Positions 1,727 through 29,594 of a DNA stretch of 64,000 nucleotides are shown piece by piece. Source of the stretch: Dehalococcoidia bacterium (lineage in GTDB: Bacteria > Chloroflexota > Dehalococcoidia > UBA6926); assembly GCA_963666115.2 (NCBI GenBank), contig CAXXET010000004.1, positions 224,001 to 288,000 of the forward strand, given 5' to 3'. A program made the translations under genes and the position numbers. Each line of letters begins with the position of its first letter. Positions within the stretch are counted from its first letter, which is position 1. The notes beneath the pieces are model-generated. The model ran no database searches. It worked only from the letters and a program-made list of their open reading frames with translations, and was not told the origin of the DNA.

Positions 1727-2985
1727 GCAGCACGGCGCCATTTTCGATAGCTGAGGACGAAACCGAAGCAACTTCGCGTTTCCGCACGTTCCGCTCGCTC
1801 CGCAACCCGGTCTTCCGCCGCCTCTGGATGGCGGGCTGGGTGTGGTATGTGAACCGCATGATGGAGATGGCGGTTCTGTCATGGCTGGTGTTGGAACTGA
1901 CAGACTCGCCAACACAGGTGGCGCTCGTCGGCGTGTTCCGCATGGCGCCCATGTTCATTCTCGGGCTGGTGGCGGGGAGCGTCTCAGACCGTTTCCCGCG
2001 CAAGTACGTGATGATCTCAACGCAGGTCGTCAACGTGGTGGTCGTTGGCGGGATGCTCGCCGTTCTCCTGGGCGGGGACGTCGAGCCGTGGCACGCATAT
2101 CTCGCGACGTTTCTGACAGGCTCGGCCTGGGCAGTCGATTTCTCGGCGCGGCGCGCCTACTTTGCCGAGATATTCCGGGGCGACGCCCTTACGAACGCGA
2201 TCTCACTGGATGTCGTCGCGTTGACGGGCAGCAGCATCGTCGGGCCGCTGTTCGCAGGGACGATCATCGAACTGGTCGACTTCTCGGGCTCGTATGCGCT
2301 GATGTTGGGACTGTACGCGGCGGCGGGCTGGGTGCTGTTCTTCATCCCGAAAACTGACTCGATGGGCGCGGAAAAGACGCCCGTGCTGCGGCACTTAAAG
2401 GAATCGGTGACGGCGCTGGCAACCAACAGGGCGCTCGTGGCCGCCCTGACCATCACGGTCAGCCTCAACTTCTTCGGATTCCCCTTCCTGACGATGGTGC
2501 CGGTGATCGGGCGCGACGTGCTGGGCGCGAATGCGTTTCTGTACGGGATATTGGCGGGCGCGGCGGGAATCGGCTCGCTGACGGGGGCGATCATCATCGC
2601 GTCGCGCCAGATACGGAGCCATGGGCAGGTCTATTCGCTTGGCTCAGCGTTCATGCTGGGGATGCTGGTGCTGTTCTCGCTTTCCGAGTGGTACGGGGTT
2701 TCCCTTGTTCTGCTGATGGTGGCGGGCCTGGGCATGGCCGGCTTTGCCACGATGCAGCCGACAATCGCCCTCCGTGCCGTCAGCCCTGAAATGCGAGGAC
2801 GCGCCATGGGCGCAATCGCCCTCGGAATAGGCGCAAGCCCCCTGGGAATGCTAACGGTAGGCTGGCTGGCAGAACCCGACCTCCTCGGCCCTCAAATGGC
2901 CCTAGCAGTCCTAACAGGAACAGGCTTCGTCGTAGTAATGATTCTGCGCCTCCTACTGCCGGAACTACGGGCGCAGAGGGGTTAG
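1723..2985 (+). CDS. MFS transporter
   Basis: About 12 hydrophobic segments; GSVSDRFPRK motif A; start overlaps the upstream stop. Confidence 0.88.
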   Translation: MSSTAPFSIAEDETEATSRFRTFRSLRNPVFRRLWMAGWVWYVNRMMEMAVLSWLVLELTDSPTQVALVGVFRMAPMFILGLVAGSVSDRFPRKYVMISTQVVNVVVVGGMLAVLLGGDVEPWHAYLATFLTGSAWAVDFSARRAYFAEIFRGDALTNAISLDVVALTGSSIVGPLFAGTIIELVDFSGSYALMLGLYAAAGWVLFFIPKTDSMGAEKTPVLRHLKESVTALATNRALVAALTITVSLNFFGFPFLTMVPVIGRDVLGANAFLYGILAGAAGIGSLTGAIIIASRQIRSHGQVYSLGSAFMLGMLVLFSLSEWYGVSLVLLMVAGLGMAGFATMQPTIALRAVSPEMRGRAMGAIALGIGASPLGMLTVGWLAEPDLLGPQMALAVLTGTGFVVVMILRLLLPELRAQRG

Positions 2986-4073
2986 CTTTCTCGCGCGCCT
3001 TCTTGGTCAAGGAGACTCTTCTTGCGTTCGGGGCCGAGGGCGTACCCGCCGAGTGTGCCGTCAGTTCGCACGACGCGGTGGCACGGAACGACGATGGGCG
3101 TTGGGTTTTTCGCGCAGGCGTTGGCGACGGCGCGCGTTGCGCTAGGCTCCCCAATCTCTTCCGCAACCTGCGAGTACGTGCGGGTTTCCCCGCGCGGAAT
3201 GCGGCGGAGGGCTTCCCACACGCGGCGCTGGAAAGCCGTGCCGCGCACGTCCAAGGGCAGATCGCCTGCCGTGTCCGGCGTCTCGCCGCAGACAATGTCG
3301 GCGACGACGGCGGCCCACGATGCAATGCGCCCCTCATCCCGCCTAAACGAAGCATTCGGAAACTCCGATGCCAGCGTTGCCTCATGCGCCGCGTCATCAT
3401 CGGCCAGCGAAATCCGACACACCCCCTTCTCCGTCCCCGCCACCAGCAGACGCCCAAGCGGACTGTCAACAATGGCATACGAAATAGAGACCCCTGCCCC
3501 GCCATTGCGGTACTGCCCCGGCGTCATGCCAAGGCGGGCGTCCGAGGATTCATAGAGCCTGCTGGGAGAGCCGAACCCGCTGTCATAGAGCGCGGACGTC
3601 ACGTCATGGCCGTTGCGCGCGCCGTCCTTGAATCGCTCAAGCCGGCGCTGCTCCGCGTACTGGCGCGGGGTGATGCCAACGATCATCTTGAAGGAGCGGC
3701 GGAGGGTGTGGTCGGTGACGCCGACAATGCGGGCAAGCGCGGCAACAGTTAGCGGCTGATCGGGCGGAGCGTCGATAAGTTCGCACGCCCGCGTGACCAC
3801 GGCGACGGCGCGGGTATGGGGGCCGCCCTCATCAGGCCGGCAGCGTTTGCAGGGGCGGTAGCCGGCGGCGCGGGCCTCGGCTATCTCGTCAAAGAACTCG
3901 ATGTTCTTGCGGAGGACGGGCGCTCCCCGACAGGTTGTAAGGCAATAGACGCCCGTCGTCTTGACGCCAAACGTGAACGCGGTCTCATACGCGGGATCGT
4001 GGTTCTGGATGGCCTCCCAGCGTTCGTCCGCGAGCGCGTTCTGTGCTGTGTTGCGTTCGATTGTTGCTGTCAT
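2982..4073 (-). CDS. ada: Bifunctional Ada transcriptional activator / O6-methylguanine-DNA methyltransferase
   Basis: Zn site TTGVYCLTTC...RPCKRC, AraC-type HTH, C-terminal PCHRV active site. Confidence 0.93.
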   Translation of the reverse strand: MTATIERNTAQNALADERWEAIQNHDPAYETAFTFGVKTTGVYCLTTCRGAPVLRKNIEFFDEIAEARAAGYRPCKRCRPDEGGPHTRAVAVVTRACELIDAPPDQPLTVAALARIVGVTDHTLRRSFKMIVGITPRQYAEQRRLERFKDGARNGHDVTSALYDSGFGSPSRLYESSDARLGMTPGQYRNGGAGVSISYAIVDSPLGRLLVAGTEKGVCRISLADDDAAHEATLASEFPNASFRRDEGRIASWAAVVADIVCGETPDTAGDLPLDVRGTAFQRRVWEALRRIPRGETRTYSQVAEEIGEPSATRAVANACAKNPTPIVVPCHRVVRTDGTLGGYALGPERKKSLLDQEGARES

Positions 4074-4167
4074 GTCCCCCGCCCCGTTGGCGTGTAGGTT
4101 TGGTTCAGGGGCATGATGGCAGGCGCTCAACCAGGCCGTCTATCCGATTTCTCTGTGGAGGTCAGAC

Positions 4168-25409: not shown

Positions 25410-26012
25410 CTAGTCGATGACGCCGATGCGCGGGCGCAGGCCGCGCTCCCGGCGTGTCAGCCGGAATCCGGCGCGGGACTCCGTTCGGTCGCGCTGTTTC
25501 GCGGCATCCGCCCACCCCTCATGGGCGAGGAGGCGTTCCTTGACGGCCAGCCCGCCGCCGAATCCGGTAAGGGCGCCGTCCGCGCCCACGACGCGATGTC
25601 AAGGGACGACGACGCCGAGCGGGTTGGCGCCAACCGCCTGCCCGATGGCGCGCGCCGCCTTTGGCCTGCCGATGGCGTGCGCCACGTCACCGTATGTCCA
25701 CACCTTGCCGGCGGGAATCTCGGTGAGGGTCTGCCAAACGGCGCGCTGGAAGTCCGTTCCGCCGTCCATGTCCAGCGGGCCCGAGAGATCCATCTCCTCC
25801 CCGTTCGTGTAGCGCGCCAGCGCGTCCGCCCAGTGGTTGAGAACCTCATTGGCAGGATCGTCATGGAGGAGGCCGGGGATGTCCGCGCGCTCCTGCTCGA
25901 TGAGCGCCCGATCATCATGCGGCCCCAGGACGGCTTTCAGACCCTTTGGCGAGGCGATAAGGCCGAGGAATCCGAGCGGCGTCGAAATAACCCTGTGACC
26001 GTTAGCGTGCAT
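25410..26012 (-). CDS. ogt: Methylated-DNA--protein-cysteine methyltransferase (Ogt/MGMT), 200 aa with an in-frame TGA at 25599-25601 at the catalytic position (candidate selenocysteine)
   Basis: [15 protein letters not shown]...TYG...AARAIG.A.GANP..VVVP-[TGA][28 protein letters not shown]...TAG; homology continues in frame across the TGA. Confidence 0.9.
25571..25587 (-). promoter_or_regulatory. Candidate bacterial SECIS element of ogt
   Basis: After UGA and an 11-nt spacer: perfect hairpin GGGCGC-GGACG-GCGCCC with the loop starting at G (+18). Confidence 0.7.
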
Positions 26013-28341
26013 CTGCGGTTCTCCTTCTCACCCTGGCGCGTCCCCTCGGCACGAATCTCAGCAGCGTCAACGCCAGCAGGCCGAATACGATCGCGCGCCA
26101 TGAGAACGGCCTGTCCGGCGCGGCGTCCTTATCAGGACCATACAGGACATGGTCGTACCATTGCACCACGCCGTACAGCGCCCACGTTGCGCGAGGCCAT
26201 GCGGCGGACAGGCGGCTGATGTACTCCGCCGGCGTCTCATCGGGCCTGGTCTTGACCCCCGCCAGCCGTCCAAGCCGGACGGTTCGCGCGTATGCCCGCC
26301 CGGCGGTGCGCGGCCGCGCCAATGCCTGCCACCAGAAGAACACGAGGATTGAGAGGCCAACGACGCCAAGAATTGCGCCCGCTCCGTACCAGACCCTCGG
26401 ATCGATCCCCACGTCCGGCAAAATCCCGGCGCCGGCATCGTCAAACTCCTGGTCGGCGGCGTCGAGGAAGCTGTCCTCCTGCAGCAGGTCTGCTTCCTCA
26501 AATGCGAACGCGCCGAGATCGCCCGCAAGCTCAAGGTCAACGTCGGGAACGAGCGCGGAGAACGTCCCCGTTGGCCCGCCGGGCGCGTCCGGCTCAACGT
26601 TCGGCGTCGGCTCAAACGGAATCCACCCGTACCCGGGGAAATAGGCTTCCGCCCACGAATGGAGATCGGTCTCGCGAACGACGAACGCGCCCAACTCGTC
26701 GTTGTACTCGCCGGGCAGATAGCCGACTGCCAGCCGGGCGGGGACCCCCACCGCGCGCAGCATCACCGTCATGGCGGAACCGAAGTACTCGCTGTAGCCT
26801 GCCTTTTCGCGGAAGAGGAAGTGTTCAAGGCCGTCAACGCCCGGGGGCGGGGCGTTGATGTTTTGGGAGTATTCGAGCTTGCGCAAGTATTCACGGATGG
26901 TGACGGCCTTGAGGTACGGCGTATCGGCGTCTTCGGCCCAGGTTTCCGCCAACTTGCGGACGCTCGGCGGCAAGTCGTCCGGCAACTGCAGATACCTCTC
27001 TGCCACCCAGTTTTTGTATTGGGGAGTGAGCGTGGTGATGTCCTCGACCGTTACCTGCGGGACGTAGGTTTGGACGGTATACCGCTGGTTGGGCTGCAAC
27101 ACGTCCGGGCTTTCCAGCTTGACCAGCCGATGGCCCTCATCGACGTCAATGTTGGTGAATTGGGCCTCGACGGGCAGGGTTGTGCGGAGAGGGGTGGCGG
27201 CGGTAAAGACGGTGGTCGCGGGGGCCTTGAGTTCAAAGGTCACGTTCCGAACACACTCCGGGCAGTTCGTGTAGCTGCTCCCCGCAATGTCCTCCAGTCC
27301 TCGCCGCTCATCGACGACCATCGGGCTGTTGCTCCAACCCCAGCCCGCGTAGCGGTCATAGGTCCGCGCGCGCCAGTACAGCCGCTCATCGCTCTCGACA
27401 TGCATCAAAATATCGGAGGGGAGGTTGATGTTGCCCCTGAACGGCAGCTCATCCGTGAAGCCGGACAGCCCCATCGACCGGCGCGCGGGCAGCGAGGCGA
27501 AGATGCGCGTGAACGTGCCTTCGGCGTTGCCGATGGGAGACCGCACTTCCGCCCAAAATGAGCGGACGACGCGCGGGCCTGAGCCAAGCGACGGCGTCAC
27601 TGTCACGACGAGGAACACGATCAGCGCAAACCAGATGCCGGCGTGCATGACGTGGGCAGGCAGCCAGGACCCCTGCGCGGCTGTCTGCTCATCCCATTTG
27701 CGGCTGCGTTCAAGATGGACGAGGCGGACGATGAGCAGGGCGGAGGCGAGCAGGAACGCCATGAAGAACGGGAGGGAGCTTGGCGGCAGGTAGGTCAGGT
27801 TGGTGACGATGGCGAACCCTGCCGGCAGCGTGGCCCAGATGTTGCGCAGCCGCAGCGTCAGGTAGACAGTCACGTAGGCAACGGCCCATGCGCCCAGCAG
27901 GAGCAGGAAGACGAACGTCAGCCTGTCCGTGCTTGCGCCGCCCTCCAACAACGCCTGCGCCCACAGCGTCATGCGGTAGACCGCGCTCAGCGCCCTGCCC
28001 TCCAGACTAGCCCCGGCCACGACCGTCAGCGTTTGCGCGAACGCCTGCGCCAGCGCGATGAACAGGGCAACCGCGTGCTGGACGACATGACTGCGGCGAT
28101 GCTTCGCGTTGATCAGCCCCGCCGCGCCCCCGATGAGCACCGCAAACGCCACCCCCGGAATCACGGGAACCCAGTGGGCATCCTCAACGCTCCAAACAAC
28201 GATCGCGGCGACCATAAACGCCAAGCCAACCGTCAGCCATCCCGTGTCCGGGTACGCCGCCGCCCGATGCCACGAGCGCGTCAGCCACGGCGGCACGTCG
28301 ACGGGCTGGGCGGGCGGCATCCGCTGCTCTGCCGTGCTCAC
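26002..28341 (-). CDS. Membrane transglutaminase-like protein (TgpA/DUF3488 plus DUF4129)
   Basis: N-terminal TMs, YWRARTYDRY, GYSEYFGSAMTVMLRAVGVPARLAVGY, HSWAEAYFPGYGWIPFEPTP. Confidence 0.88.
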   Translation of the reverse strand: MSTAEQRMPPAQPVDVPPWLTRSWHRAAAYPDTGWLTVGLAFMVAAIVVWSVEDAHWVPVIPGVAFAVLIGGAAGLINAKHRRSHVVQHAVALFIALAQAFAQTLTVVAGASLEGRALSAVYRMTLWAQALLEGGASTDRLTFVFLLLLGAWAVAYVTVYLTLRLRNIWATLPAGFAIVTNLTYLPPSSLPFFMAFLLASALLIVRLVHLERSRKWDEQTAAQGSWLPAHVMHAGIWFALIVFLVVTVTPSLGSGPRVVRSFWAEVRSPIGNAEGTFTRIFASLPARRSMGLSGFTDELPFRGNINLPSDILMHVESDERLYWRARTYDRYAGWGWSNSPMVVDERRGLEDIAGSSYTNCPECVRNVTFELKAPATTVFTAATPLRTTLPVEAQFTNIDVDEGHRLVKLESPDVLQPNQRYTVQTYVPQVTVEDITTLTPQYKNWVAERYLQLPDDLPPSVRKLAETWAEDADTPYLKAVTIREYLRKLEYSQNINAPPPGVDGLEHFLFREKAGYSEYFGSAMTVMLRAVGVPARLAVGYLPGEYNDELGAFVVRETDLHSWAEAYFPGYGWIPFEPTPNVEPDAPGGPTGTFSALVPDVDLELAGDLGAFAFEEADLLQEDSFLDAADQEFDDAGAGILPDVGIDPRVWYGAGAILGVVGLSILVFFWWQALARPRTAGRAYARTVRLGRLAGVKTRPDETPAEYISRLSAAWPRATWALYGVVQWYDHVLYGPDKDAAPDRPFSWRAIVFGLLALTLLRFVPRGRARVRRRTADAR

Positions 28342-29594
28342 GCTCCCCACCTCTCGGGCCGCGTGAAGCTGCGGCGGTTGCCCGGCTGCATGGCAATCGG
28401 GCCCAGCGCGTTGAAGCTCAGGGCGCGCCCGATGTCATCGCCGAGCCGCACGATATACGCCGCGACGCCCATCGAATACAGGCTCGCAAGTTCGGCGGAG
28501 TGGTCGCCGGACGCGCCGAAACTCGTCGGCTCCAGCAGGATGACCGCCCCGGGCGAGTTCCGCTCTTGCAGGATGGACGCGGCGGCGATGGCGTCTTGCA
28601 CAGACGGGGTGATGGCGATGACGCCGGTTCGACGGCTGAATTGCGCCTCGTGGATGCCGAGCAGTTCACCCAGGCTGACCCTGCCCTCCGCCCGGCACAG
28701 CGCTAACGCTTCCAGGATGCGCCACAGGTGCTTGTCGCCGGTTCCGTTGGGGATGGTGTATTCGGAATCGCCGATGGCGGAGAAGCCCACGCCGTTGTCG
28801 AACTCCAGCAGGTAGCGCGCGATGGAGGCGGCAACCGTGACGCTAACCTCTTCCGTGCCGCTCAGGCCCTCGCCCACCTGCACAGCCGCGTTGAGGTCGA
28901 GGAGTATCGAGAGATCGGACTGCACCTCCGTCTCGAACTCCTTGACCATGAGGCGGTTGAGCTTCGCGCTGCTCTTCCAATGGATGCGGTTGAGGCTGTC
29001 GCCAACGGTGTAGCGTCGAACGGATACGACGTTGGGCGTGAACTGGGACGTTGCGCGGTAGTCCGGCGCGTCGCCCGTCTCCTCCGCGCTGGAGATCACG
29101 AAGTCGTCAAGCGGGAACGGGGCCGGATAGACGACCAGTTCGCGCCGCTCGCCGATGACTCGCGTCGTCTCGAAAAGGCCGAACGGGTCGGACGCCGTGA
29201 CGCGCAGCGGCCCCCAGTGAAAGCGGCCGCGCTTGTCCGCGCGCGTTCCCAGTTTCGTCCAGTTGCGCGAGCCGCGCGTGGGCACGCCCATGACCTCGGA
29301 CGCAAGCGCAGGAACGTCGCCGATGTCCTCGATATGCAGCCAGGGGCGCGGCAGGAGGGAGGTATTTTCCAGCCACACGGACTCCTCCACGCGCTCCCCC
29401 ACCTGCGCCAGCGACGGCTGATCGTCCGCGCCCGCGCTGATTCCGCGCAGGCTCAGCTTCGTCCACAGCCACGCCAGGATGAACACGGCGATGACGGCGC
29501 TGAGCAGATAGGACATGACGTAGAATCCCGACCCAAGGGTCAGGAAGAGCGCCATCAGGATCAGCGCGCCCAGATAGACGCGGCGACTCCGCAC
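28338..29594 (-). CDS. DUF58 domain protein
   Basis: RG...GP....SDPFGLF, VRRY.GD.L.RIHWKSSAK, LMVKEFE. Confidence 0.9.
   Translation of the reverse strand: MRSRRVYLGALILMALFLTLGSGFYVMSYLLSAVIAVFILAWLWTKLSLRGISAGADDQPSLAQVGERVEESVWLENTSLLPRPWLHIEDIGDVPALASEVMGVPTRGSRNWTKLGTRADKRGRFHWGPLRVTASDPFGLFETTRVIGERRELVVYPAPFPLDDFVISSAEETGDAPDYRATSQFTPNVVSVRRYTVGDSLNRIHWKSSAKLNRLMVKEFETEVQSDLSILLDLNAAVQVGEGLSGTEEVSVTVAASIARYLLEFDNGVGFSAIGDSEYTIPNGTGDKHLWRILEALALCRAEGRVSLGELLGIHEAQFSRRTGVIAITPSVQDAIAAASILQERNSPGAVILLEPTSFGASGDHSAELASLYSMGVAAYIVRLGDDIGRALSFNALGPIAMQPGNRRSFTRPERWGA

Follow-up and report, generated by a model that had tools for sequence, protein, structure and literature searches.

A 64,000-nt stretch of DNA from a Dehalococcoidia bacterium (contig CAXXET010000004.1, positions 224,001 to 288,000), called here the window, carries on its minus strand (26012..25410) a gene for an O6-alkylguanine-DNA alkyltransferase of the Ogt/MGMT type in which a UGA codon occupies the place of the alkyl-accepting cysteine (Cys). 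Comparison with related sequences indicates, with a probability of about 0.92, that this is a genuine selenoprotein gene and that selenocysteine (Sec) is the alkyl-accepting residue of its product. The recoding signature is composed of a conserved UGA, a hairpin resembling a selenocysteine insertion sequence (SECIS) and a translated downstream part; the genome codes for a complete Sec machinery and the gene is orthologous to Cys forms. Together with the constraint found past the UGA, these features support the seleno-MGMT that a preliminary description of the window had proposed. From them we infer the actual insertion of selenium and the transfer of alkyl groups, as well as any kinetic advantage that the Sec form might have.

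The UGA codon and the protein that it interrupts

The MGMT coding sequence (CDS) begins with an ATG at 26012 and ends with a TAG stop (25412..25410). Among its 200 sense codons there is one in-frame TGA, codon 138, in the context VVVP-TGA-HRVV. The open reading frame (ORF) and its translation agree with the limits 25410-26012 and the intact 200-aa frame of the preliminary description. ORF calling with translation table 11 splits the gene into a 137-aa product that ends in ...GVVVP and an in-frame ORF of 59 codons with a GTG start (25589..25410).

The read-through protein matches PF01035 across the TGA (residues 87-166, E 2.4e-35, 120.7 bits for a cut-off of 27, profile positions 1-80 of 81) and also TIGR00589 (115.8 bits, cut-off 46.4). 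Its best PDB matches are solved MGMT, Ogt and Ada-C structures (E 7.9e-29 to 2e-19), in which the TGA column aligns with the Cys of the PCHR motif, the place to which the TGA had been assigned from the motif. Residues N130 (GANP; the hinge 8 residues before the acceptor), H139, E165 and R-A-I-G 122-125 align to their counterparts in 4bhc_A; the supporting residues of human O6-alkylguanine-DNA alkyltransferase (hAGT) are numbered N137, H146 and E172 (PMC4150793). N130, H139 and the recognition helix are invariant across the 21 orthologues found in the genus, and the P-x-H-R-V active-site motif is intact in all of them apart from the acceptor, whose codon is UGA. The Cys-type Ogt/Ada-C proteins and human MGMT (4bhc_A, 4wxc_A, 1sfe_A, 1eh6_A) thus share P-x-H-R-V, the N-P hinge, the RAVG helix and H/L-E with the window protein, which differs from them by the predicted Sec in place of Cys and by an additional basic tail (residues 167-200). 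This tail of 34 aa has no Pfam match and is translated only upon UGA read-through. It is common to the Sec and Cys orthologues of the family and is also found in a Cys form from another family (L139); a role in non-specific DNA binding is a guess.

Orthologues were searched in 61 related genomes, 22 of them in the genus, the genome of the window (G000) included. Of the 21 other genus genomes, 20 have, like G000, a full-length orthologue with exactly one in-frame TGA (66-88% protein identity); in the remaining one (G001; 230 contigs, 90% complete) only the Ada paralogue matched. The motif VP-TGA-HRVV and the hairpin that follows it are found in 21/21 genus orthologues over a protein divergence of up to 34%. 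In two sister genera the six syntenic orthologues all have TGT or TGC at this column and no such hairpin, so that the TGA/TGC interchange that was looked for exists between positional orthologues. TGT or TGC is also found at the acceptor column of 3/3 further class-level orthologues. In a survey of the class (401 genomes sampled; match at E <= 1e-25 in 288), this genus is the only one with TGA at the Cys column among the matches listed, which leave out a further 183 weaker ones; TGY stands at the acceptor column in 18/18 other class-level matches that were checked, 16 of which had been flagged with an internal stop. A search of a contig collection gave only distant Cys homologues, the best from Sphingobium (52%) and from a Dehalococcoidia metagenome-assembled genome (MAG; 46%).

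A nonsense mutation, decay to a pseudogene or an erroneous base call could account for the TGA in one genome, where a single TGC>TGA change would give the observed pattern. Twenty other species-level genomes of the genus, each assembled independently, and a metagenome contig (L158) have the same TGA, though, which is therefore not private to this assembly. Related sequence is present in contigs of sponge-metagenome and marine-metagenome runs (small-share DNA contigs), and none of the differences listed for them falls on the TGA or the hairpin. One marine contig spans a whole 801-nt stretch with 49 differences (~94% identity); none of the 40 differences listed, to which 27 others are to be added, lies within 25534-25610. 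The gene is under purifying selection 5' as well as 3' of the TGA. The genus-wide TGA and this selection already refute an error or a pseudogene, to which we give a negligible probability.

The mean pairwise ratio of nonsynonymous to synonymous substitution rates (dN/dS) among the 21 Sec-type genes is 0.126 upstream of the TGA (148 alignment columns) and 0.076 downstream of it (68 columns). Within the downstream part it is 0.072 for the rest of the domain (32 columns) and 0.081 for the basic tail (36 columns). The sequence past the TGA is thus under purifying selection and is not decaying. Termination at the UGA would leave a fragment of 137 aa without active site, composed of the N-terminal domain and part of the DNA-binding domain, which might act as a damage-binding or regulatory protein. 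This is just the product that gene callers yield, and the closest entries of the public protein collection have the same form: ~40 unnamed clusters at 58-94% identity, all of 137-138 aa and covering 69% of the query, among the best 120 of 6,232 matches. The full-length entries among these 120 are Cys forms at 54-59% identity. Termination as the normal fate of the UGA is nevertheless extremely unlikely, as the 62 codons past it are more constrained than the part before it, complete the Pfam domain and stay open to a conserved stop in all 21 orthologues. This constraint argues that the region 3' of the TGA is translated. Among these best matches, the public collections systematically miss the clade, stored as products cut at the UGA.

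The two pieces could also form a split enzyme, with a stop at the UGA, a restart at the GTG four codons later (25589..25410) and assembly of both polypeptides. The in-frame GTG-initiated ORF of 59 codons does exist. The pieces would be devoid of the acceptor residue and of H-R-V-V, yet these four codons are amino-acid-invariant. In the 21 genes the codons for H-R-V, which lie between the UGA and the first codon where a restart is possible, differ only by synonymous exchanges (CAT/CAC, CGC/CGT/CGA, GTC/GTT); this excludes a stop-and-restart protein. The GTG is itself part of the conserved hairpin, and no ribosome-binding site was seen before it, although none was looked for. There is next to no likelihood left for a split enzyme. 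The base after the UGA is always C in this gene because the next codon is His; UGA-C is a weak termination context.

The hairpin, the Sec machinery and the decoding of UGA

The 11-nt spacer and the perfect 17-nt hairpin noted in the preliminary description are present directly 3' of the UGA (25587..25571 for the hairpin; Table 1), and the loop begins 17 nt past the UGA. The bacterial SECIS (bSECIS) consensus of bSECISearch, as given in the legend of Fig. 2A of PMC13188914, has an apical loop of 3-9 nt (5 nt here), an upper stem of 4-16 bp (6 bp here), a G within the first two loop positions (GG here), 16-37 nt from UGA to loop (17 nt here) and a minimum free energy of -7.5 kcal/mol or lower (-12.5 kcal/mol here, calculated for the identical hairpin of L158). 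The window hairpin agrees with the published consensus in all these points. The minimal SECIS of E. coli fdhF, a 17-nt stem-loop 11 nt after the UGA with which the preliminary description had compared it, may be an exact equivalent. It differs from bacterial SECIS elements by having no evident bulged U or long lower stem, the lower helix predicted by RNAalifold being weak.

The hairpin is identical in 18/21 orthologues; the other three have one C>T exchange that turns a G-C pair into G-U, the sole change in the stem. Five of the seven hairpin codons use a single codon in all 21 genes, compared with 3 of the 92 other amino-acid-invariant degenerate columns (Fisher one-sided p = 1.6e-5, a value that is overstated because the 21 sequences are related). 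There are thus 8 single-codon columns among 99, and one of the three outside the hairpin is the CCT just 5' of the TGA. These frozen synonymous sites argue that the hairpin is under selection as RNA. In a control with a simple version of the bSECIS criteria (contiguous stem only), a conforming hairpin lies 3' of the acceptor codon in 60 of 79 metagenomic Sec-MGMTs and in 9 of 105 Cys-MGMTs. The Cys set is richer in G+C (0.70 vs 0.61), yet seldom has such a hairpin.

Several observations weigh against a Sec-specific signal or limit what can be claimed for it. Of 200 dinucleotide shuffles of the 49 nt 3' of the UGA, 58 fold as well as the sequence itself (z = -0.52), so that by energy alone the hairpin is at chance level and its support is comparative, coming from a TGA and a hairpin that are kept together in 21/21 orthologues. 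RNAalifold keeps the 6-bp helix with 0 compensatory changes in 14 predicted pairs, so that the helix is supported by conservation and not by covariation. Rfam gave no match to a SECIS family, which is expected for short bacterial SECIS elements yet adds no support. The hairpin follows in part from the peptide G-A-D-G-A-L written in GC-rich codons, a motif that predisposes to this structure: a few GC-rich Cys forms with the same peptide (e.g. L098, L108, L049) carry most of the hairpin, e.g. GGCGC-GGACG-GCGCC. The sequencing runs listed as containing the stretch included no RNA run. In the tree of the catalytic domain presented below, an approximately unbiased (AU) test does not reject a single clade of all Sec-MGMTs (p = 0.109), and only a local Sec/Cys switch at the orthologous locus is therefore claimed. 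A sub-threshold Rfam match to GA-cis was regarded as chance.

The genome of the window (2.07 Mb, 9 contigs, ~63% G+C) codes for a tRNA-Sec, found by ARAGORN and by Rfam (68 bits, gathering score 47), and for SelB (329.8 bits), SelA (539.2 bits) and SelD (386.6 bits), all over curated cut-offs. The concern that tRNA-Sec or SelB might be missing is thereby removed. The SelD gene has itself an in-frame TGA (L010, C6:420976-421899). Of the 28 genomes of the family only one, a 69%-complete MAG, lacks a SelA match over the cut-off; the sister genera with Cys thus use Sec as well, and what distinguishes them is particular to the MGMT gene. The genome otherwise reads TGA as stop: it terminates 331/795 long open frames, release factor 2 (RF2) is present and the sole tRNA with anticodon UCA is tRNA-Sec. 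The RF2 (prfB) match (G000:C6:396681-397710, minus strand) is split across two frames near profile positions 302-311. This is not the usual N-terminal programmed frameshift site, and the split may be an assembly error or a real shift.

A genome scan for in-frame TGAs based on G+C content at third codon positions gave 141 candidates, 12 of them with a SECIS-like hairpin, and eight were sent to Pfam. A Pfam domain spans the TGA in four of these (Table 1), three have no domain and one was rejected (L269, which is two adjacent genes). Beside the MGMT gene the genome thus has at least three others for selenoproteins of known families (GrdB, DUF3179, DsbA-like), to which SelD is to be added. The scan missed SelD and is therefore not a complete selenoproteome. 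In the four Pfam-supported genes the distance from the UGA to the predicted loop is 18-23 nt, and two of the loops read GGC, similar to the MGMT element. One of the four, a CoA-transferase-like ORF (L263), has the hairpin GGCUCCA-GGC-UGGAGCC with its loop 23 nt past the TGA. Its family does not appear in the accessible passages of the published selenoprotein tables; L263 may be either a hitherto unlisted selenoprotein or a false positive.

The UGA might also be read by a near-cognate tRNA (Trp, Cys or Arg), in which case the hairpin would only slow the ribosome or reflect codon bias. Conservation downstream of the UGA is compatible with this, as it shows read-through and not the identity of the inserted residue; the same holds for a hairpin that lacks covariation and is partly dictated by a peptide motif. 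With Trp at position 138 the product would be an alkyltransferase-like (ATL) protein acting as a non-catalytic damage sensor. ATL proteins have Trp or Ala at the acceptor position (PWHR motif). An ATL sensor was rejected, the acceptor codon being TGA in 21/21 orthologues and never TGG or GCN. Near-cognate decoding is very unlikely as a whole. The Sec machinery is kept in this genome and in all 22 genus genomes, the hairpin, whose GG loop begins 17 nt past the UGA, fits the SECIS consensus, and synonymous variation is frozen in it but not in the conserved codons nearby. A one-step change of TGA to TGG or TGC would fix the residue efficiently, yet TGA is kept in 21/21 species. Sec insertion is the preferred reading of the UGA.

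Gene neighbourhood, origin of the Sec form and relatives

The features of the locus and the other TGA-containing genes of the genome are collected in Table 1.

Table 1. Features of the Sec-MGMT locus in the window and candidate selenoprotein genes elsewhere in the same genome (the latter with genome and contig labels).
Feature	Coordinates	Strand	Basis or remarks
O6-alkylguanine-DNA alkyltransferase CDS (Ogt/MGMT type), predicted to contain Sec	25410..26012	-	ORF, translation, PF01035, TIGR00589, PDB matches
In-frame UGA, predicted to be read as Sec (U138); alkyl-acceptor position P-U-H-R	25599..25601	-	Codon comparison with orthologues
11-nt spacer from UGA to hairpin, CATCGCGTCGT; codons H-R-V and part of V	25588..25598	-	Synonymous variation only
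SECIS-type hairpin GGGCGC-GGACG-GCGCCC; 6-bp stem, 5-nt loop GGACG (25581..25577)	25571..25587	-	Codons V-G-A-D-G-A-L
Basic, Arg-rich C-terminal extension, residues 167-200, past the Pfam domain	25413..25514	-	Conservation, dN/dS 0.081
Shine-Dalgarno-like AAGGAG, 8 nt 5' of the ATG	26021..26026	-	Read from sequence
TgpA-like transglutaminase membrane protein gene, upstream	26002..28350	-	PF01841, PF11992, PF13559
Full-length Cys-type Ada, paralogue 21 kb away	2982..4130	-	PF02805 90.3 bits, PF12833, PF02870, PF01035 121 bits
GrdB homologue (L262)	G000:C3:23461-24825		PF07355 427.8 bits, one in-frame TGA
DUF3179 protein (L264)	C7:152292-153440		305.8 bits, U-P-L-C, one in-frame TGA
DsbA-like protein (L265)	C3:8782-9453		U-P-W-C, one in-frame TGA
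CoA-transferase-like ORF (L263)	G000:C4:503886-504791	+	PF01144 residues 26-239, TGA at residue 121 (ALDST-U-PVTL)

The end of the TgpA-like gene overlaps the start of the MGMT gene by 11 nt (26002-26012), and the two are therefore probably co-transcribed. The TgpA-like gene lies upstream of the MGMT gene in 20/20 other genus loci and in 6/6 loci of the sister genera, while a Kef-like antiporter gene follows it in 20/20 and 3/6 of these loci, respectively. The TgpA-MGMT pair is also found in two class-level relatives (L041 and L042), both with Cys, and the linkage is conserved over the family and these two. The Sec form of the genus is a positional orthologue of the Cys forms of the sister genera.

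The second alkyltransferase of the window, the Cys-type Ada, combines a Zn methyl-phosphotriester domain, an AraC helix-turn-helix and the N- and C-domains of MGMT with the motif ...VVPCHRVV... Each of the 21 genus genomes with the Sec gene has a second, Ada-type MGMT match, compared with a single match to the same query in 5/6 sister-genus genomes. Judging from this correlation among relatives, a Cys-type Ada as backup may have eased the switch to Sec. It could also take over repair under selenium scarcity.

A tree of the catalytic domain was computed with quick IQ-TREE (LG+G4) from 117 columns and 199 rows (94 Sec, 105 Cys), leaving out 7 short metagenome rows and one Cys row. The genus clade and the metagenome contig L158 group together (SH-like approximate likelihood ratio test, SH-aLRT, 88) and are nested among Cys forms. 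Their nearest sister is one of the sister genera (support 73), followed by L139, the other sister genus (support 90) and, outside these, Cys forms of the class (support 89). At least 11 Sec/Cys changes are required by the free tree, but only 2 by its well-supported branches; for the Sec-MGMTs as a whole, more than one origin is likely on this short alignment. A local switch is claimed because synteny and the basic tail are shared and because the TgpA-linked class-level relatives have Cys. Its direction was presumably from Cys to Sec, on the stem of the genus. The partial hairpin of the Cys forms is possibly a pre-adapted SECIS, with which a single TGC>TGA change could yield Sec insertion; Cys forms that already carry most of the hairpin suggest a conversion in few steps.

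The Sec-MGMT family itself is not new, and the window adds a new lineage to a selenoprotein family predicted since 2005. The caveat in the preliminary description that Sec forms had been predicted earlier was right. A Sec-MGMT was reported in 2005 for Carboxydothermus hydrogenoformans, predicted by Sec/Cys homology in a genome with selA, selB, selD and tRNA-Sec; it has a stem-loop after the UGA and was called unique among the organisms studied (PMC1287953). The symbiont metagenome of Olavius gave two Sec sequences of the family (PMC1976440) and the Global Ocean Sampling (GOS) data one, next to 2,879 Cys homologues (PMC2398784). Reviews of 2022 and 2026 list the family with the example ABB14497.1 (PMC9312934, PMC13188914). 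In the main texts of the library searched, predictions and the engineered human enzyme came up, but no biochemical characterisation of a natural Sec-MGMT. Supplementary tables of selenoproteome papers may list more Sec-MGMT lineages, possibly including this one. New here is a Sec form fixed throughout a genus, with Cys positional orthologues in sister genera.

The C. hydrogenoformans protein CHY0809 (ABB14497.1) is, by its published description, like the window gene a PF01035 protein with UGA at the active-site Cys column and a stem-loop directly 3' of it. Compared by description, the window protein differs in being a positional orthologue of the Cys forms of its own family and in its basic tail of 34 aa. 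The Carboxydothermus form is described as unique to one organism (PMC1287953), whereas that of the window is fixed in the whole genus.

A metagenome scan with the restrictive pattern P-TGA-H-R-V-[VI]-x3-G-x-L-x-G-[FY] matched at least 120 contigs. In all of the 80 that were retrieved (L141-L220) the translation is an MGMT domain whose Cys column has TGA; together with the genus they form 16 clusters at 60% identity. In a comparison with 72 other metagenomic Sec-MGMTs, the clade of the window shares no more than 50% identity with any of them; L158 is a contig of the genus itself, with the same TGA and an identical hairpin. The different clades have each their own hairpin over the same codons. 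In the largest (PUHRVISSAGTLGGFSGG) it is GCUCAGC-AGGUAC-GCUGGGC, with the AGGUAC loop 20 nt after the UGA. Sec-MGMTs appear to be far commoner in metagenomes than the one or two sequences of the 2007-2008 surveys.

Predicted chemistry and biological meaning

According to the standard bacterial Sec pathway, the SelB-GTP-Sec-tRNA(Sec) complex would bind the mRNA hairpin during translation and decode UGA-138 as Sec, in competition with RF2. The full-length protein of 200 aa would then flip out O6-alkylguanine and its selenolate would attack the alkyl carbon, leaving Se-alkyl-Sec. One protein molecule, and with it one Sec, would be spent per lesion in a single turnover. MGMT is the textbook single-turnover repair protein.

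The nearest experimental counterpart is an engineered human enzyme, AGT-U145, in which Sec replaces the catalytic Cys in the same fold and which protects E. coli from N-methyl-N'-nitro-N-nitrosoguanidine (MNNG) (PMC4150793). It is artificial, encoded by UAG, delivered by EF-Tu and free of a SECIS; the window gene differs by its UGA, its SECIS-type hairpin and the predicted use of SelB. The side chain of Sec has a pKa of ~5.5, compared with 8.6 for Cys (PMC4150793). It therefore exists in ionised form from the start and should be independent of activation by the Asn/His/Glu network. In hAGT-U145 the side chain of Asn137 is dispensable, which its authors attribute to the low pKa of Sec (PMC4150793). 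The corresponding Asn of the window protein (N130) is still invariant in 21/21 orthologues. N130, His139 and Glu165 are all retained, so the activation network is not visibly relaxed.

Sec might also change the chemistry, if the Se-alkyl adduct were resolved by a thiol, a corrinoid acceptor or another route and the protein turned over. Such recycling is quite unlikely, with sequence data that are neutral on the matter. A recyclable Sec enzyme, if real, would be the first catalytic, non-suicidal O6-alkylguanine alkyltransferase, and it would explain why the genus pays Sec for a single-use protein while keeping a Cys-type Ada. In a weaker variant, on which the sequence data are likewise neutral, selenium limitation would make the UGA yield a truncated or a Trp-containing, ATL-like product with a separate sensing role.

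For annotation the finding exposes a practical problem, since the close relatives of the Sec-MGMT among the best 120 matches are all stored as truncated products of 137-138 aa. For the biology of the family, the genus is a natural experiment in which the same locus has Sec or, in the sister genera, Cys, a Cys-type Ada stands in the same genome and the SECIS lies within a conserved peptide. If the single-turnover chemistry predicted above applies, a natural MGMT that spends one co-translationally inserted Sec per lesion would be an extreme investment of an expensive residue.

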